Shown: piece after piece, positions 1 to 54,000 of the stretch
Layout of the letters: each line of letters opens with the position of its first letter
Position numbering within the stretch: the first letter of the stretch is position 1
Assembly: GCA_965248355.1 (NCBI GenBank)
Contig: OZ252098.1
Coordinates: forward strand, 3,904,001 to 3,968,000
DNA length: 64,000 nt
Source of the DNA: Candidatus Latescibacterota bacterium
Lineage (GTDB): Bacteria > Latescibacterota > UBA2968 > UBA8231
Reading direction: 5' to 3'
Position numbers: made by a program

Positions 1-3000
1 CTCTTCGTGGATGACCACGTCATCGAGGAGCTGGACGGACTTGAGCGGGTCAGCCAGCGGCCCACCAAGCTGGGCCGGCCGGTCCTGGAGGGGACCGAGC
101 CCTGGGAAAAGGCGACCGCCGCCATCATCGGCAATTCCCTGCACTACGACGCTGAAGACGGCCTGTTCAAGGCCTGGTACGACACCGCCGCCGGAGTCGC
201 CTATGCCACGTCGCGGGACGGTCTCCAGTGGGACAAGCCGAGGCTCGGGATTCTCGAGCATGATGGATCCACGGCCAACAACCTGGTGAGCCCCGGCCGG
301 AACTTCAGCGTCGTCAAGGACCCGCGGGCCGATGACCCGGCGCAGCTGTACAAGGCCATGTACTGGCACTCCCGCAGGGACCCCGATGCGCCGTGGGGCG
401 GCAAAGGCCACTTCGTGGCCTGTTCCCCCGATGGCGTGCACTGGACTCCGGAAACGCGGAATCCCGTCATCGACTTTCGCAACGGCCTGACGGACGGCCA
501 GTTCGTCCTGGGCTGGGATCCTGCCCACGGCAAGTAAGTGGCTTACATGCGGCCCAACGTCTACTTCTTCGATCCCAAGAAGAGGACTTCGGCCTGGGTC
601 GCAAGCGACGACTTCATCAACTGGGGCCCGCCGGTCCTGGCGGTTGCGCCCGACGACTCGGACGGGCCCGAGATCGAATACTACCGGATGAGCGTGGCCA
701 GGTACGAGGGCATCTACCTGGGCTTCATCTGGGTCTACCACAACGACGAGGCGGAGTTCGCGGACCAGTCGCGGGACACGGTCCTGGCCGCGAGCCGCGA
801 CGGCATCACCTGGAGCAGGCCCTTCGGGAGCGAGACCTTCCTCGAGACGGGGGCGCCCGGGGACTGGGACTCGCGATGGGCGAGCGTCTGCAACATGATC
901 CCCGTGGGAGATGAGCTGCGGCTCTACTACTCCGGCGCCAACATACCCCACAACGTCCTGGCCGAGGGCGGGGGCCGCGGGTCGGTTCGGGACTGGCCGG
1001 GAAGGGTGATCGACGGCGAGCGCCGGGCCTACGCGGTGGGCCTGGCCAGGCTGCGGCGCGACGGCTTCGCTGCACTCAGAGCGACGGCGGGTGAAGGGAC
1101 GTTGACGACCCGGCCGGTCACCTTCCTCGGCACGACGCTCCACCTGAATGTGGACAGCTCGGGGGGCAGCGTGGAGGTGGAGGTGACGGACGCCGGAGGC
1201 CAACCGCTGGAAGGCTATTCCCGTGCGGACTGCCTGCCCATCTCCACGGACTCGACGGACATGACCGTGAAATGGAGAGGTGAGAAGGACCTCGTACATG
1301 CCACGGACACGGCGTCCGACCTCGGAGGTGACACCCTGGCCTTCAAGTCGCAGCTCAGGAAGCCCGTGCGGCTGAGATTCCATCTCAGGGACGCGAGTCT
1401 GTATTCGTTCCGGGTCTGCTGATGAAGTTCAGCAGGAAACAATTGGAGCAGTACCGCTTGCGCGGCTACGTCATCGTGGACTGCCCCTTCCCCGAGAGTC
1501 TGACCGAGGAATGCATGGCGGCGGTGGAGAGGGTTGCCCGGGACCCCTCGGAGGGACCGGCGGACGGCAGGAAGAGGAATCACTTTCGACTGCGGCCCCA
1601 GGTGGAAGACTCGTACTGGTGCTCCCTCGATCACTCCCTGCCGTTCATGAAGATCATCCTGCACCCCGAAATCATCGAGCTCGCCCGCCAGCTGAACGGA
1701 GAGAGCGATATCTATCTGCGCAACGGCGGGATCAACGAGCAGGCGCCGGACCGATCGGTGGGGTGGCACATCGACGGCGGGCCCGAGTGGGCGGAGTTCA
1801 TGCACTACTTCTCCGGGGCTTCGCGGGAGAACGGGTGTCTGCGCATCGTGCCGGGCAGTCACAGGGGGCCGCCCACCGCTCTCGAGGAGAAGGCGGCCCG
1901 CCTCAGAGATGAACGTGGCATTCCCGGCTCCCAGGCCGATGACGGCTGGGAGGATGTCCCCCTCGACGAAGAGATCTCCCTGGAGGTGGAGCCCCACCAG
2001 TTGGTCGTGCGCCACTCGAGACTGTTTCACTCGACCTGGCTCAACCGGACGGATGACGGCCGGTACATGAGTCACTGGCTGTTCCACCCCCACACGATCG
2101 ACAACCATCGCTTCACCTGGGGGGACTACCTGACCCCGGAGCTGCTCGATGCGCTGAGTCCCGAGCAGCGGGAGGTGCTGTGGCTGGAGCGGGACTTCGC
2201 CATCGATCCCGCGTACGACCGCGAGCGGTCGCGCGAGTTGGGCCGGGTGACGTGGGGCATGAGATGACGCCCTGGGAAGAGAACATTCAGCAGGCGAGGG
2301 CGGTGGCGCTCGAGATCCTGAAACCGGCGCCCGAGCAGTTGGAGCGCGGGCTGGCCCTGCACCGGGATGCCATCGTGTGCGAGTCGTACAGCCTCGGGCT
2401 GCAGGCGCCGGTCGACGGCGAGGCCGTGGCGCAGGCCGTGGAGTCGGGGGCGTCGGAGGTCGAGCTGCAGTACCTGTCGGAGCAGATGCGGATGACGCGC
2501 TGGGCCTGCGACGACGAGCTGAAGGCCGAGTACCTGGGGGCCTGGGAGGCGTCCGGGGTGACCTGCGCCTTCCAGAACACCGGCGAAGAGGGCAACGACC
2601 CCATGCGCATGCTGGGGCGGCTGGCGCACTACACCCATCTGACGGACCGCATGCGCGACCACGTGGCCCGCGCCCCCTTCCCCGACGACATCGTCGCCGC
2701 CAAGACGGCCGGCCGGCACTGCATCTATCAGACCTGCAACGGCGTGCCTCTCCCCGGCGAGCAGGCCACGGTGGAGCAGGAGCTGCGCTTCATCAGCCTG
2801 CTCTTCGAGCTCGGCTGCCGCATGATGCACCTGACCTACAACCGCCGCAATCCGATCGGCGACGGCTGTGCCGAGCCGGCCAACGCCGGTCTGAGCGAGT
2901 TCGGCCGCGCCGTGATCGCCGAGATGAACAAGGTCGGCGTGATCATCGACGTGGCCCACTCCGGCTGGCGGACCTGCCTGGAGGCGGCCGAGGCGTCGGC

Positions 3001-51000: not shown

Positions 51001-54000
51001 CAATTGCACACATCCCCTCATTTCCCCTTAGATGGCTGCTTCTTCCAAATAGACCGCTCCATTTCATCTATGAAAAACTGCCGATATACCGATGGGGCAT
51101 TCAGGACATTCCCTTCGCCGTCAATTTCCAGGGAGTGAATACGGACGTCGAGGTCGCGCCGTTCGAAGAAGAGGATAGAAATGTCTTCGGGCTTCAGGTT
51201 TCCCTCGCCGTCTCGGACATCCATCCGCACACGACTGAGCAGGTGATCGCTATGAGTTTCGACTACCAACTGCCGGTGAGGGTTGGCGACTTGACAGAAC
51301 AAGCTACCAAGAGCGGCCTGGGCGCTGGGATGGAGATGTACTTCGGGTTGCTGCAACAGAAACATGGACGGGGCATCGGAACGAAGCAACTCGGTAATGA
51401 CGGGGAGCACTTGGCTTACCCCATATCCTACGTCAATTAGGTTCCTTTGGAGTCCCTTGACTTTCCTCCCCGCTCTGCGGATCTGCACCTGGAAGGGTTC
51501 TGTCTCCTTCTTCCCGAAAGACTTCACCGAGATTTCATCAAAAAGGCCGGCAGCGTGCCCGAAAGTCTCCAGAGCGTCTTTGAGGGTTGCCCACTGCTCT
51601 CTTGAGCGGAAGTGCAAGCTGGACAGATACATGGGGATGTACTCGCCTTCGGGGTCCTGTGTCGGACGTGCAGGATCGTATGTGCGACGTGGCTTGGACC
51701 GAACTGGTGCGCTGGCATAAGGGCCATCCCCTTGAGAGGGAATGAGTTCTACGCGACTGAAGCGAACTACCTCTTCGACTTGCTCGAGATCCGCTTTGGT
51801 AGGCTCGCGCGAACCGGAGACTGCTGTCAACGGATGGTTGTCTTCGGTTGCATTTATCGAATGCCAAAGCCTCGAGAAAAGAGAAAAGGGTTCCCTATGG
51901 GCCCAATCCAGGAAACGGAGGGTTTCGTCAGACAGGTCACACTTCCAAGAGCCGCTCTTGGTTCCAAAGCGGGTCTCTTTGTGTGAGGGTCTGAATTCGA
52001 TCCACACATCCTTCTTGGAGAGGCGTCTGCGCTCTGGAACGGGGACAGCGTCCCTTTTCTCAAAAGTTGCTTCAAACCGAAATGGTTCATTCCGTATGAG
52101 TTCAGCCAGGCTAGATTGAAGCCGGTACTCAAAACCGGCCTGAAAAGTATCTGGTCGACCGGCGCGCCCTCCTCGGTAATGGGCGATCTCATCGAAGCTA
52201 CCGAGGTCGTAGGGAGCTTCCTTGAAGTTGGGATCCTTTTCCTGATAGGCAATTTCCCACAGTGCTTTGATCAGGGCCAGAAAGGAGGTCTTGCCTGTGC
52301 TGTTTTCGCCGACGAGCAGTGTCAGGGGTGCCAAGCGGGCGCCCTGTTTTTCCCCGAAACAGCGAAAGTTCTCTATTGTCACTCTGTCCATTGGATGCCC
52401 CTCTTCCTTGCGCGGCACCGGCGGAGTATGCGGGGAGCACTACTTTGATGGCCCTGAGGATAGAAGGGGGAGACAACGATGGCAAGGTAGAGGGTGTCGG
52501 GAGCCCCCTGGATGTGGGAGTGTGCTTGGGAGGCCGGGTTGTTGGGGGTAGTCACGGACCAGTGTAGGGACTGGCTTTAGATGCACGAACCCCCCCCAGG
52601 CCGGCGCCCCACCGGATCGAGTGGCGCCGGAGTCACCCCCGGCCCAGCACCCCCACCGGGCGCCACCCGGCCCAGAAACAGTGTGTGTGGGCGGGTCCCC
52701 ACCCAGGGCGGTGACGGCGGCGCAGGCCGAGCCGAGCGGCGCATTACGCGGGCCGGGGTCAACAACCAACCTCATCCAAGAGGCCCAGAGACCCGAGCCC
52801 AGCGAGGGGCTCGCCAGCCCCACGAACCACCCCCCGTCGATAGATCCACCACGAAGGCCCCGCGTACGCGCCGCCGAGGCGCGGACGGAGCCGCCGGCAC
52901 CGCCCCCTCCCAGAACCCCCCACCCACCCCCATCTTCAAACCACCCAACCCAACCCATCCCATCCCCCACCCGGACCCCCAAAATGCCCCCCTCCGACTA
53001 CCGATCCTCCATCACCACCCAGGGCCGCCGCATGGCCGGCGCCCGCGCCCTCTGGCGCGCCACCGGCATGAAGACCGAGGACTTCCTCAAACCCGTCGTC
53101 GCCATCGCCAACAGCTTCACCCAGTTCGTCCCCGGCCACGTCCACCTCCACCCCATCGGCCAGCGCGTCAAGCAAGTCGTCGACGCCGCCGGCGGCTACG
53201 GCGTCGAGTTCAACACCATCGCCGTGGACGACGGCATCGCCATGGGCCACGACGGCATGCTCCTACATCAAGGCCAGGCAGCTCGGCGCCCGCTGCGCCC
53301 TGCTCACCGACGGACGGTTCTCGGGCGGCACCAGCGGCCTCTCCATCGGCCACGTCTCGCCCGAGGCGGCCTACGCGGCGCTGACCACGAGCGCCGCCCG
53401 GGGGGCGGTGCGCGACGTGAGCCAGGTGCAGCCCCGCGCCGGAGGAGACTGAGGCTCAGCCCCGAGCCTCACCCGAAGTCCCAGGCGCCGGGATAGTCCT
53501 CCCCGTACCTGATCAGCGCGGCATGGACGCCGTGGATCGCCTTCTCCGCGGCGTTGACGGCGATCGGCGTGTTGGCGGGGTAGTTGATCGCGCCGGTGCG
53601 CACCCGGTGCAGCACCAGGCCGGTGCGGCCGCCCGCGTGGGGCCATGTCCGCCACCGGCCGCGCCTCGGGACGCAGGGGCAGGCCCGAGGCCAGCAGGTC
53701 GATCACCGTGGACCGGCCGCGGACGGCGAACCCGTCGTCGGGGTCGACGGTCGTGCAGTAGAGCGGATTGCGGTTCTGGCGAATGCCGGAGAAGAACCGG
53801 ACGACGCCGTCGGGGCAGCCGTAGGCGGTGGCCGGGCCTGCGGCGGGCAGCTGCACGGTCGAGGCCCCGGCGGCCGCCGCGGCGGGAGCGAAGGGGTCGT
53901 CCAGGCGCAGGAAGTTGGCACCCTGGTTGCCGGGGTAGGAGCGGGCGGCGATCACGAACCCGCCGCGCCAGCGGATCGGACTGGCCTCGATGGCGGGGAA

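Follow-up and report, generated by a model that had tools for sequence, protein, structure and literature searches.

How does an imperfect palindrome come to lie in about a dozen intergenic spaces of one chromosomal zone, always in the same orientation, and what might it do there? The question is raised by the genome of a Candidatus Latescibacterota bacterium (G000), of which we analysed a stretch of 64,000 nucleotides, here called the window. Close copies of the element occupy 11-12 loci, fragments included, all on the + strand of contig positions 3,896,389-3,956,937 (~60 kb; Table 1). The core comprises ~180-230 nt and the copies 205-385 nt, whereby the long form, of up to ~385 nt, consists of the core, a 5' module and a CA-rich tail. 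Many copies are shortened and decaying through deletion, so not every copy is maintained. The host is an uncultured sponge-type bacterium, and the zone that holds the array is one of gene shuffling.

The preliminary description had placed all G000 copies on the + strand of one segment, and for close copies BLAST and a whole-genome profile HMM agree with it. With three copies as queries, BLAST matches in G000 were restricted to the plus strand of contig 3,896,389-3,956,930, apart from four marginal matches, each of at most 53 nt and with E 5e-5 or weaker. The profile HMM, built from 15 long copies and run on the whole 5.5-Mb genome, gave 25 matches at E<=1, all inside the array segment; the 15 plus-strand pieces correspond to 11 loci, and the 10 minus-strand matches are the two hairpin arms matching one another. 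Running nhmmer --max on the array region alone yields 12 loci, the degenerate remnant among them. All 16 matches of the covariance model R1 in G000 (E<=1; 150 of 11,774 first-look candidates scored) lie in the segment as well. Syntenic, co-oriented arrays had also been claimed for the sister species G006 and G007, and both were recovered by BLAST and nhmmer: every match falls within C6:1,587,098-1,664,229 in G006 (full-length copies on the minus strand) and C1:2,675,856-2,741,374 in G007 (plus strand), the opposite-strand matches being short and arm-to-arm. Counting fragments, nhmmer finds 17 loci in G006 and 14 in G007, copy-based counts being inflated by orthologous copies. Some copies overlap or stand in tandem (B1-B2, C2-C3 and a pair in G005). 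Identity is 86.4% between orthologous elements; among paralogues it is 82.1% within and 82.0% between genomes, so that there is no sign of concerted evolution. Flanking genes show 81% identity at third codon positions, and other intergenic DNA is unalignable.

Table 1. Copies of the element in and beside the window, and the adjoining ilvD remnant (window coordinates unless marked as contig)
Feature	Position	Strand	Basis	Structure and surroundings
Array copy	contig 3,896,389-3,896,561	+		left of window
Array copy	contig 3,902,545-3,902,724	+		left of window
A3, partial copy	13172..13376	+	nhmmer hmm 14-60 + 183-342; R1 91.1 bits; sequence read	5' arm deleted, 5'-module hairpin joined straight onto loop and 3' arm; minus-strand genes on both sides
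A4, short form, full hairpin core	16830..17056	+	nhmmer 158.6 bits; R1 170.2 bits	plus-strand genes on both sides; ORF at 17069 starts 13 nt after the copy; orthologues B6 and C5 likewise short
A5, short form	21999..22234	+	nhmmer 211.3 bits; R1 192.2 bits; sequence read	tail GGAGGAGG 7 nt upstream of the ATG of an enolase-superfamily gene (Pfam) at 22249
A6, fragment	34275..34311	+	BLAST; nhmmer hmm 282-319, E 1.6e-4	3'-arm remnant only
A7, short form	35761..35983	+	nhmmer 182.3 bits; R1 176.6 bits	between divergent genes: minus-strand ECF sigma, plus-strand gene of unknown kind
Degenerate remnant	37289..37352	+	nhmmer hmm 215-276, E 1.1e-6; R1 23.8 bits, E 0.11	loop and central hairpin only
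A8, fragment	39267..39365	+	nhmmer hmm 6-50 + 166-220; sequence read	5'-module hairpin, 5'-arm end and loop start; extends into ankyrin gene region
A9, fragment	40548..40648	+	nhmmer hmm 13-51 + 291-359; sequence read	5'-module hairpin, 3' arm and CA-rich 3' extension CTATCTTCAA
A10, long form, 5' module + hairpin core	43592..43939	+	nhmmer 313.9 bits; R1 193.5 bits	convergent flanking genes; fold z-score -5.8; ~25 additional 5' bases GAGTAGTCCGGGCTCCCC common to other long copies
A11, long form	52591..52937	+	nhmmer 309.5 bits; R1 198.6 bits	array's last copy; immediately 5' of ilvD remnant
ilvD remnant	52985..53262	+	tblastn 90% identity, 93/621 residues	first 93 codons only of the dihydroxy-acid dehydratase gene; at 53262 contigs of other strains continue differently

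The long covarying hairpin proposed earlier holds in an alignment of 33 copies from six genomes, in which 98.2% of the cells of 43 pairs are paired. Hereby, 7 of the 43 pairs changed on both sides, compared to 1.9 in shuffles (0/500) and 1 when the structure was slid. Absence from Rfam stands as well: the window gives no match at gathering score, the best sub-threshold match having E 0.2. Across genera almost all outer-stem pairs show 2-4 Watson-Crick types in a model-fitted alignment, and a compensatory G-C/U-A swap distinguishes the suf copy of G000 from its orthologue in G007. Conservation is very uneven: among 229 core columns in 40 copies, 111 are invariant or changed once and 46 carry at least 10 minority bases (dispersion index 7.8). 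Judged by these alignments, the fold is one that selection maintains, and purifying selection acts on ~110 core positions. That these interior positions are fixed across paralogues predating the species split points to selection on each copy rather than neutral decay.

The fold has three parts, connected by two variable, C/A-rich linkers. The outer stem P1 is long, the least conserved part, and covaries, so that pairing alone appears to be required. The inner stem P2 is fixed in sequence, with GGCGCAUUACGCCGG opposite CCGGCGUACGCGCC and a fixed 2x1 internal loop. In the central hairpin P3 the flanks are fixed (CCCAGAGAC ... GGCUCGMCA), while inner stem and loop vary in length and sequence. The start of the 5' module resembles the 3' arm and thus offers internal homology for slippage. 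Non-Watson-Crick cells comprise 28 G.U against 5 A.C, all five singletons, in the 33 array copies, and 9 against 3 in ten dispersed copies; the six symmetric mismatches in the long stem of the consensus are without exception G.A or A.G. By this asymmetry the folding strand is the sense strand, although folded sense-strand DNA would fit the G.U excess and the G.A mismatches equally well.

What the element might do is best approached through its relatives outside the array. Confinement to the segment, given as a defining property in the preliminary description, applies to the high-identity subfamily only; the rest of that description, a structured palindromic repeat outside Rfam, co-oriented, clustered and common to sister species, stands. 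With the covariance model, diverged members of full length came up in each of the ten genomes of this genus and in a second genus. The G000 member lies at 2,119,726-2,119,901 on the minus strand, in the sufB/sufC spacer (R1 57.4 bits); further dispersed members occur in G001, G003, G005, G007 and G009, and the other genus (G040) has four copies. The clustered copies are thus one young-looking subfamily of an older family. There are 2-4 dispersed members per genome, most of them sense-oriented and placed within a transcription unit or at one end of it; the arrangements are sufB-[E]-sufC, rny-[E]-ymdB, rpsU-[E], GH-[E]-sulfatase, [E]-ilvD and [E]-PhyH, where [E] is the element. At ten independent loci both flanks are co-oriented in six, at least one flank in ten and none in zero (binomial P for at least six at p=0.25, ~0.02). 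They sit tightly within operons, with the next start codon 15-30 nt away; several copies carry an SD-like motif directly 3' of the 3' arm, and the next cistron's ribosome-binding site often follows 3-25 nt after P1. In G001, the element is followed downstream by a near-consensus TTGACA-17-TACAAT, which would place the element outside the 5' UTR of the next gene there.

Since these older relatives lie inside ordinary operons, the element would most probably function as a folded segment of mRNA. We tentatively favour, with a confidence just short of even, a lineage-specific, ERIC/REP-like structured RNA element acting within mRNAs and amplified locally next to ilvD. According to PMC2229807, ERIC/IRU of enterobacteria and Correia/NEMIS of Neisseria are imperfect intergenic palindromes, conserved across genera and giving long stem-loop transcripts; they are co-transcribed with their neighbours and affect mRNA stability or processing in an orientation-dependent manner, the processing enzymes being RNase E for ERIC and RNase III for NEMIS. 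The present element is larger (core ~180-230 nt, up to ~385 nt, against 100-200 bp). It resembles them in description, as an imperfect intergenic palindrome with a predicted long stem-loop and conservation across genera. Here the interior rather than the ends is conserved, neither a TA target duplication nor a conserved terminal repeat is seen, and 2-4 dispersed copies per genome are joined by one co-oriented local array. We know of no ERIC or Correia counterpart of such an array. In phage T7 early mRNA, related RNase III hairpins with internal loops separate the cistrons, each of them oriented with transcription. Our family likewise consists of related hairpins with internal loops, whereas those of T7 are much shorter, phage-encoded and part of a single transcript; here the genes have both orientations and cleavage is putative. 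REP sequences, as described in PMC3733652, are extragenic palindromes of 20-40 bp in hundreds of copies; they often lie in spacers that are transcribed, and roles in stabilising mRNA and in termination have been proposed for them. The element is similar to REP/BIME/REPIN in being an extragenic palindrome whose within-genome families have lineage-specific sequence, and differs from REP by its three-part fold with a fixed core.

An alternative which we consider unlikely, though it deserves weight, is a non-autonomous mobile element, a MITE or a relic of the single-strand IS200/IS605 type, spread by transposition and now mostly dead, with its orientation fixed by replication or local hopping and host effects incidental. 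In line with this, the copies are palindromic, intergenic and often decayed, the suf, rny, rpsU, sulfatase and ilvD sites are each occupied in some species only, and subfamilies are homogeneous per lineage, the four G040 copies having one outer stem and the array copies another. A single constant orientation on the lagging-strand template is characteristic of single-strand transposons; in G000, G006 and G007 the inferred template of the lagging strand is the element's sense strand. However, no RAYT/Y1 transposase was matched in G000 or in the five other element-bearing genomes, a difference also from REP/REPIN with their RAYT, and TnpB-type and IS110-type transposases gave no match in G000. 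Transposase linkage was found at none of the core-bearing loci (26 genome, 1 metagenome and 0 viral loci); the window's only transposase belongs to an IS256-family insertion unrelated to the element. At 35 copies no target-site duplication could be seen, and no clean empty site was found, apparent ones retaining element remnants. Together with outer inverted repeats that covary and the fixed interior, this weakens the MITE alternative that the preliminary description had raised.

Less probable still are independently transcribed small RNA genes, encoding trans-acting regulators or a ribonucleoprotein RNA, whose high expression would keep them close to the origin and aligned with replication. 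The array copies are indeed co-directional with inferred replication in all three species and lie 143-203 kb (G000), 142-219 kb (G006) and 143-209 kb (G007) from dnaA. The large fixed core with its covarying stems would suit such RNAs, and their single-stranded, C-rich linkers might base-pair with ribosome-binding sites rich in G. Array orientation is also independent of the neighbouring genes: at 12 loci, with gene orientations from crude GC3-based ORF picks, both flanks are co-oriented in 2, one in 8 and neither in 2, about the random expectation, which counts against the mRNA-borne reading favoured above. Two loci, A2 and A3, whose orthologues in G006 and G007 are intact, have opposite-strand genes on both sides, and a sense transcript could arise there only from a promoter of its own. 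Yet none of the elements yielded a sigma-70-like promoter or an intrinsic terminator, their alignments show no conserved promoter-like motif, and no conserved promoter lies upstream. The short forms A4/B6/C5 keep the core without the 5' module and have unrelated sequence upstream, many copies are truncated, and the distance of dispersed members to the next start codon better fits cis elements.

The array also recalls attC sites and CALINs, co-oriented imperfect palindromes in one chromosomal zone between variable gene blocks; in attC, ~57-141 nt long, the single strand matters in its folded form, and the sites keep one orientation with respect to replication. The element could correspondingly be a site of recombination at the DNA level, or the landing pad of a cassette platform resembling an integron, served by a recombinase encoded elsewhere that uses either the duplex or the sense strand, folded when exposed on the lagging-strand template; excision and re-insertion of gene blocks between co-oriented sites would give one orientation and one zone. 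Besides the shared orientation in three species and the inferred lagging-strand placement of the sense strand, the highly rearranged state of the zone fits: there are 13-18 synteny breaks per species pair, with block orientation kept except for one inverted block. Breaks coincide weakly with elements, in short gaps at 6 of 11 for A versus B (2.2 expected, P 0.005) and 3 of 6 for A versus C (1.0 expected, P 0.04), whereas with all gaps the association is absent in four of six directed comparisons (P 0.26-0.46). The degenerate remnant moves together with its upstream block in G006 (alignment with G006 and G007), 50442-52612 is replaced in one strain with the right-hand end inside an element, and low-GC defence and toxin-antitoxin cargo adjoins elements. 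Nevertheless, we judge this reading very improbable, as breakpoints have no fixed element position (one falls ~25 nt within coding sequence, and A5 represents a plain deletion), apparent empty sites hold remnants, single copies sit inside housekeeping operons without cassette logic, blocks between elements span 1-14 kb with genes on both strands, and, unlike attC, the element measures 205-385 nt with a strongly conserved loop, lacks RYYYAAC/GTTRRRY ends in its consensus and has no integron integrase nearby or recognisable; Pfam finds no recombinase in or beside the array in the three species, those of G000 being three tyrosine recombinases (0.32, 1.06 and 2.24 Mb) and one serine recombinase-like ORF (0.99 Mb).

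Returning to the mRNA-borne element, its working form would most likely be the sense-strand RNA, carried in neighbouring mRNAs as intercistronic spacer, 5' UTR or 3' UTR. A trans factor, either a ribonuclease or an RNA-binding protein, may recognise the fixed P2/P3 core and alter processing or stability of the host transcript or translation downstream. The order of element and then ilvD seen at A11 recurs in G006, where ilvD is intact (623 aa, 84% identical to G040), in G007 and in G040. The co-oriented array would then represent orientation-preserving local amplification of the ilvD-linked copy within a zone of gene flux, having grown probably by tandem duplication or unequal exchange, with the genes between copies gained and lost later.

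RNAalifold predicts 43 base pairs for the element from 33 near-complete cores of six genomes. In the predicted fold, an interrupted outer stem (P1) and an inner stem (P2) of together about 45 bp surround a central hairpin (P3), and 98.2% of the cells at these pairs are paired. Both sides have changed in 7 pairs; shuffles give 1.9 such pairs (0 of 500), and sliding the partner gives 1. Hereby, the preliminary description is upheld in its claims that the element forms a hairpin with compensatory changes and has no Rfam family, as Rfam 15 gives no match at gathering score in the 64-kb window; with permissive filters, the best match at 43550-43990 is P18, whose 21.7 bits (E = 0.2) fall short of its gathering score of 60. 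Among the non-Watson-Crick cells 28 are G.U and 5 are A.C, the latter all singletons, and the six symmetric mismatches in the consensus stem are without exception G.A or A.G. The central hairpin is constant (GAGACCC-GA-GC ... GC-GA-GGGGCUC) around a variable triloop (GCA, GAA, CCA, GUA or CUC). The G.U excess, the G.A mismatches and the fixed central hairpin together show that the fold of the plus (sense) strand is the selected one, which fits both RNA and single-stranded DNA on the lagging-strand template.

The genome studied (G000; 5.5 Mb in a single contig, G+C about 67%) carries copies of about 230 nt, or about 340 nt in the long form, which adds a 5' module and a CA-rich tail. BLAST with three copies finds contig positions 3,896,389-3,956,930 only, always on the plus strand, apart from four marginal matches no longer than 53 nt. 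All 25 matches of a profile HMM to the whole genome (E ≤ 1) lie within this segment; 15 are plus-strand pieces of 11 loci and 10 are minus-strand matches of element arms to one another. The covariance model R1 likewise places 16 of 16 matches there (best 150 of 11,774 candidates scored), and searching the region at higher sensitivity resolves 12 loci: two long, three short but complete, and seven partial or fragmentary. The sister species G006 and G007 hold 17 and 14 loci, fragments included, in the syntenic place and all array-oriented, counts that are partly non-independent since many copies are orthologous. Copies also occur in G002, G004 and G005; all genomes compared are MAGs. Thus the repeat and its co-oriented sister arrays are as first described, while the proposed confinement to one segment holds for the high-identity subfamily only and fails for the family as a whole, which has diverged members elsewhere, including the sufB-sufC spacer of the same genome.

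The array lies 143-203 kb to the right of dnaA, with its sense strand co-directional with inferred fork movement, a layout that recurs in G006 (at 142-219 kb) and G007 (at 143-209 kb). Contigs of an independent run bridge the order from 35950 to 43821, which is part of the array only. Short-read contigs of four DNA runs tend to stop at elements, and one contig of run X12 links 43839 to 35904, element to element, possibly as an assembly artefact.

Orthologous copies are 86.4% identical, and paralogues are equally alike within (82.1%) and between genomes (82.0%); the copies are thus not homogenised. Flanking genes are 81% identical at third codon positions, and ordinary spacers give no alignment between species. 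In 40 copies, 111 of 229 core columns are invariant or changed once and 46 of 229 carry at least 10 minority bases (dispersion index 7.8). With about 110 positions fixed in paralogues older than the species split, this pattern is one of purifying selection on each individual copy and not of neutral decay. Loss by deletion is under way in many copies.

To cover the taxonomic family, R1 was run on 61 genomes with strict filters and 40 candidates scored per genome. Under these settings, every one of the 10 genomes of the genus, G000 among them, has matches, as does one of the two from a second genus (G040, with four copies); 49 genomes from 16 other genera have none. The diverged members are full-length (50-79 bits) and retain GGCGCAUUACGCCGG / CCGGCGUACGCGCC and CCCAGAGAC-hairpin-GGCUCGMCA. 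Their outer stems are wholly different yet complementary, which amounts to strong cross-genus covariation; the inner stems of the central hairpin differ too, and the suf copies of G000 and G007 differ by one compensatory swap. At 10 independent dispersed loci both neighbours lie on the element strand in 6 cases, at least one in 10 and none in 0, against a random expectation of 2.5, 7.5 and 2.5. In several dispersed copies, the ribosome-binding site of the next gene follows 3-25 nt after the 3' arm. The ilvD proteins behind the element-ilvD arrangement are 84% identical, and the G040 copies have nothing in common with the array in synteny beyond this arrangement. No element was found at 24 sufC loci of other genera or at the sufC loci of G009 (same genus) and G040; the G009 sufB-sufC spacer keeps a 5'-arm remnant only.

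Positions and contexts of the element and of features near its copies (gene calls are our own ORF picks backed by Pfam)
Feature	Position	Strand	Genomes and remarks
Array of co-oriented copies	contig 3,896,389-3,956,937	plus	G000
dnaA	contig 3,753,410-3,753,895		G000; broad cumulative GC-skew minimum
sufB-element-sufC	G000 2,119,726-2,119,901	minus	also G007, G003, G004, G005
Second suf hairpin	G000 ~2,120,000-2,120,100; L064 ~4900-4990		upstream of suf element
rny-element-ymdB			G003
rpsU-element			G001, G003, G005, G009
Glycosidase-element-sulfatase			G009
Element-ilvD			G040; arrangement as for last array copy in G000, G006, G007
Element-PhyH and others
WD40-repeat gene	window 19659-21921	minus	two overlapping ORFs (626 and 268 aa)
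Short-form copy A5	window 21999-22234	plus	G000
IS256-family insertion (Transposase_mut)	window 44849-46280		this assembly only
ORF of 1336 aa	window 46254-50261	minus	no Pfam match
PIN-domain gene and AAA_15/AAA_21 (AbiEii-type) ATPase	window 50540-52418	minus	57.5% GC; directly left of last element
Truncated ilvD	window 52985-53262		first 93 codons only
BrxL (BREX Lon-like protease)	window 62057-63991	minus	right window edge

The second conserved hairpin of the suf spacer reads GGCGCCG-UGAGCGCAGCGAA-CCGGCGCC, and at this spot G003 carries a stem with compensating changes (UGCGCGG ... ACUCGCGCA). The spacer itself measures about 330-400 nt in the genus and about 90-150 nt in two other genera. 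Among rpsU-linked elements, the CA-rich tail of one (L062, G001:C127) ends before queC in TTGACA-17 nt-TACAAT, a near-consensus promoter, and that of another (L098, G005:C524) has four tandem CAGAACAACCCAA units followed by TTGACA. These G-poor, C-rich tails look like Rho-loading tracts.

We tentatively favour, at somewhat less than an even chance, an ERIC/REP-like structured element that acts on the sense strand in host transcripts, the array being a local amplification of the ilvD-linked copy. The element would be transcribed within neighbouring mRNAs, be served by a trans-acting partner and affect the mRNA. ERIC and Correia elements would be its nearest functional counterparts; PMC2229807 describes them as co-transcribed palindromes with orientation-dependent effects on mRNA. 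The array may have grown in a plasticity zone: the 5' module of the element starts like the 3' arm, so that local duplication preserving the orientation could occur, and tandem or overlapping copies occur (B1-B2 in G006, C2-C3 in G007 and one pair in G005). A main weak point of placing the RNA in transcripts is that some intact array copies are flanked solely by opposite-strand genes. By crude gene calls, the direction of array elements is unrelated to that of the neighbours, since of 12 loci 2 have both flanks co-oriented, 8 a single flank and 2 no flank. A riboswitch role tied to a common downstream function was rejected, as the genes that follow the elements are of unrelated kinds (unknown proteins, enolase-superfamily, ankyrin, PhyH, ilvD, sufC, ymdB, sulfatase and GNAT).

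That the copies descend from a dead mobile element is unlikely in our view. MITEs of the ERIC/Correia type have conserved terminal inverted repeats, whereas here variation is greatest in the outer stem, which covaries (2-4 pair types per position across genera) and encloses a fixed interior. Such MITEs also leave a target-site duplication, typically TA according to PMC2229807; we see no direct repeat in 25 nt on either side of 35 copies, an inspection that a short duplication could escape, the true ends of the long form being uncertain. Clean empty sites sought at three places demonstrated no insertion event: the spacer at B7 is unalignable with G007, a tail remnant at B15 persists in G007 and indicates deletion, and the 5' arm persists in the G009 suf spacer, another apparent empty site that is a deletion. 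Descent from an autonomous parent, a phage or a plasmid was also rejected, the core pattern occurring in no viral contig and otherwise only in same-genus MAGs (26 loci); the one metagenome contig that carries it is also present in a MAG.

Neither the array nor, for most classes, the whole genome contains a recombinase or transposase that could work on the element. Tyrosine recombinases (PF00589) are absent from the array genes of G000, G006 and G007, with no match within 1.6 Mb of the array and the three of the genome at 0.32, 1.06 and 2.24 Mb; a linked serine recombinase was searched for and not found. REP/REPIN-RAYT systems combine a palindromic unit of 20-40 bp with a RAYT gene, whereas our unit has at least 170 nt and the Y1 transposase (PF01797) has no match in G000 or in any of five relatives (G002, G004, G005, G006, G007). 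IS200/IS605-derived elements and omega-RNA loci come with TnpA and/or TnpB/IscB, none of which adjoins any locus examined (TnpB, PF07282, 0 matches in G000), and IS110-type bridge-RNA ends adjoin a DEDD transposase (PF01548, 0 matches in G000).

Independent sRNA genes are a somewhat less likely reading still. A promoter and terminator scan of 35000-54000 finds one promoter-like site, outside the elements, and no terminator-like site in any element. The window contains no tRNA or tmRNA gene.

An early lead, that the element is an integrase-less cassette or landing-pad site, was demoted and is now improbable. The zone is heavily reshuffled among the three species (13-18 breaks per pair), but the coincidence of breaks with elements is weak once elements are permuted among intergenic positions (overall P 0.03-0.46; for short gaps in six directed comparisons 0.005, 0.04, 0.53, 0.09, 0.015 and 0.25). 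Cassette boundaries of integrons lie at a fixed point of the site, whereas the breakpoints here vary, some falling within genes or the 5' module. Two possible hybrid copies were discarded as evidence of element-to-element exchange, A5 being explained by a simple deletion of the 5' module and a 628-bp block and A2 requiring an extra deletion. Integron attC sites have R''/R' ends RYYYAAC ... GTTRRRY and about 57-141 nt, with the rest of the sequence not conserved; in integrons the integrase, a tyrosine recombinase, adjoins, and a CALIN has at least two canonical attC sites. By this definition our element differs: its consensus stem ends are GGGCGGUG ... CACCGCCC, GTT occurs in neither the 3' arm nor the tail, and its core spans 205 model positions with about half of the columns near-invariant (111 of 229). 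Lacking the defining features of attC/CALIN, REP/RAYT, IS200/IS605 and ERIC/Correia elements, it is classed as a variant among structured intergenic palindromic repeats, set apart by an interior that stays fixed, by covariation across genera and by the one array of co-oriented copies.

The least probable reading combines two claims: the fixed P2/P3 core would be a new functional RNA class (a ribozyme or the RNA partner of a protein) or folded single-stranded DNA, and the co-oriented copies beside ilvD an integrase-less platform on which sponge symbionts gain, lose and re-order accessory blocks of catabolic enzymes, toxin-antitoxin or defence genes and eukaryote-like repeat proteins; if true, this platform would amount to a cassette system separate from the integrons.

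The genes of the array comprise catabolic ones (PhyH, enolase superfamily, sulfatase, heparinase-like, glycosidases), ECF sigma/FecR/TonB sets, and toxin-antitoxin, defence-like, ankyrin and WD40 genes besides one IS256-family insertion. All four other runs skip precisely this insertion (44848 to 46281), and 8 bases common at the joint suggest an 8-bp target duplication. The truncated ilvD is 90% identical to the G040 protein, while G006 and G007 have the gene intact (623-624 aa); contigs of other strains continue with ilvD-like sequence at 53262, and neither G006 nor G007 has DNA that matches the following 1.5 kb of G000 (to 54813). The WD40-repeat gene, a single ORF in G006 (838 aa) and G007 (799 aa), is probably split by a frameshift or an assembly error. 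In run X12, 37 other bases replace 50442-52612, the right end lying inside the 5' module of the last element. The 1336-aa ORF has internal direct repeats (46370-46739 against 47522-47903), and the matching DNA of G006 is read as two genes, one containing GH2-N (988 aa) and one of the enolase superfamily (565 aa). G007 has lost the equivalent of 43937-48266, beginning exactly at an element 3' end. With BrxL at the window edge, a BREX defence locus probably extends beyond.

The literature searched holds nothing relevant on such arrays or on repeats in Latescibacteria, and we know of no non-coding RNAs described in this uncultured, sponge-associated lineage. If the sense-strand RNA reading is true, the element would be a new, well-supported structured RNA motif that covaries across two genera with about 110 fixed positions. 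Its sites are informative, as they lie within the Fe-S assembly operon, downstream of the RNase Y gene and of rpsU, and upstream of ilvD, and they would then give a tangible way into post-transcriptional regulation in this lineage. Palindromic repeats are normally scattered, which makes the co-oriented array unusual in itself; it also marks a hot spot where genes are gained, lost and re-ordered from one close species to the next. The locus thus lends itself to asking whether such repeats promote plasticity of the genome around them or ride along with it.
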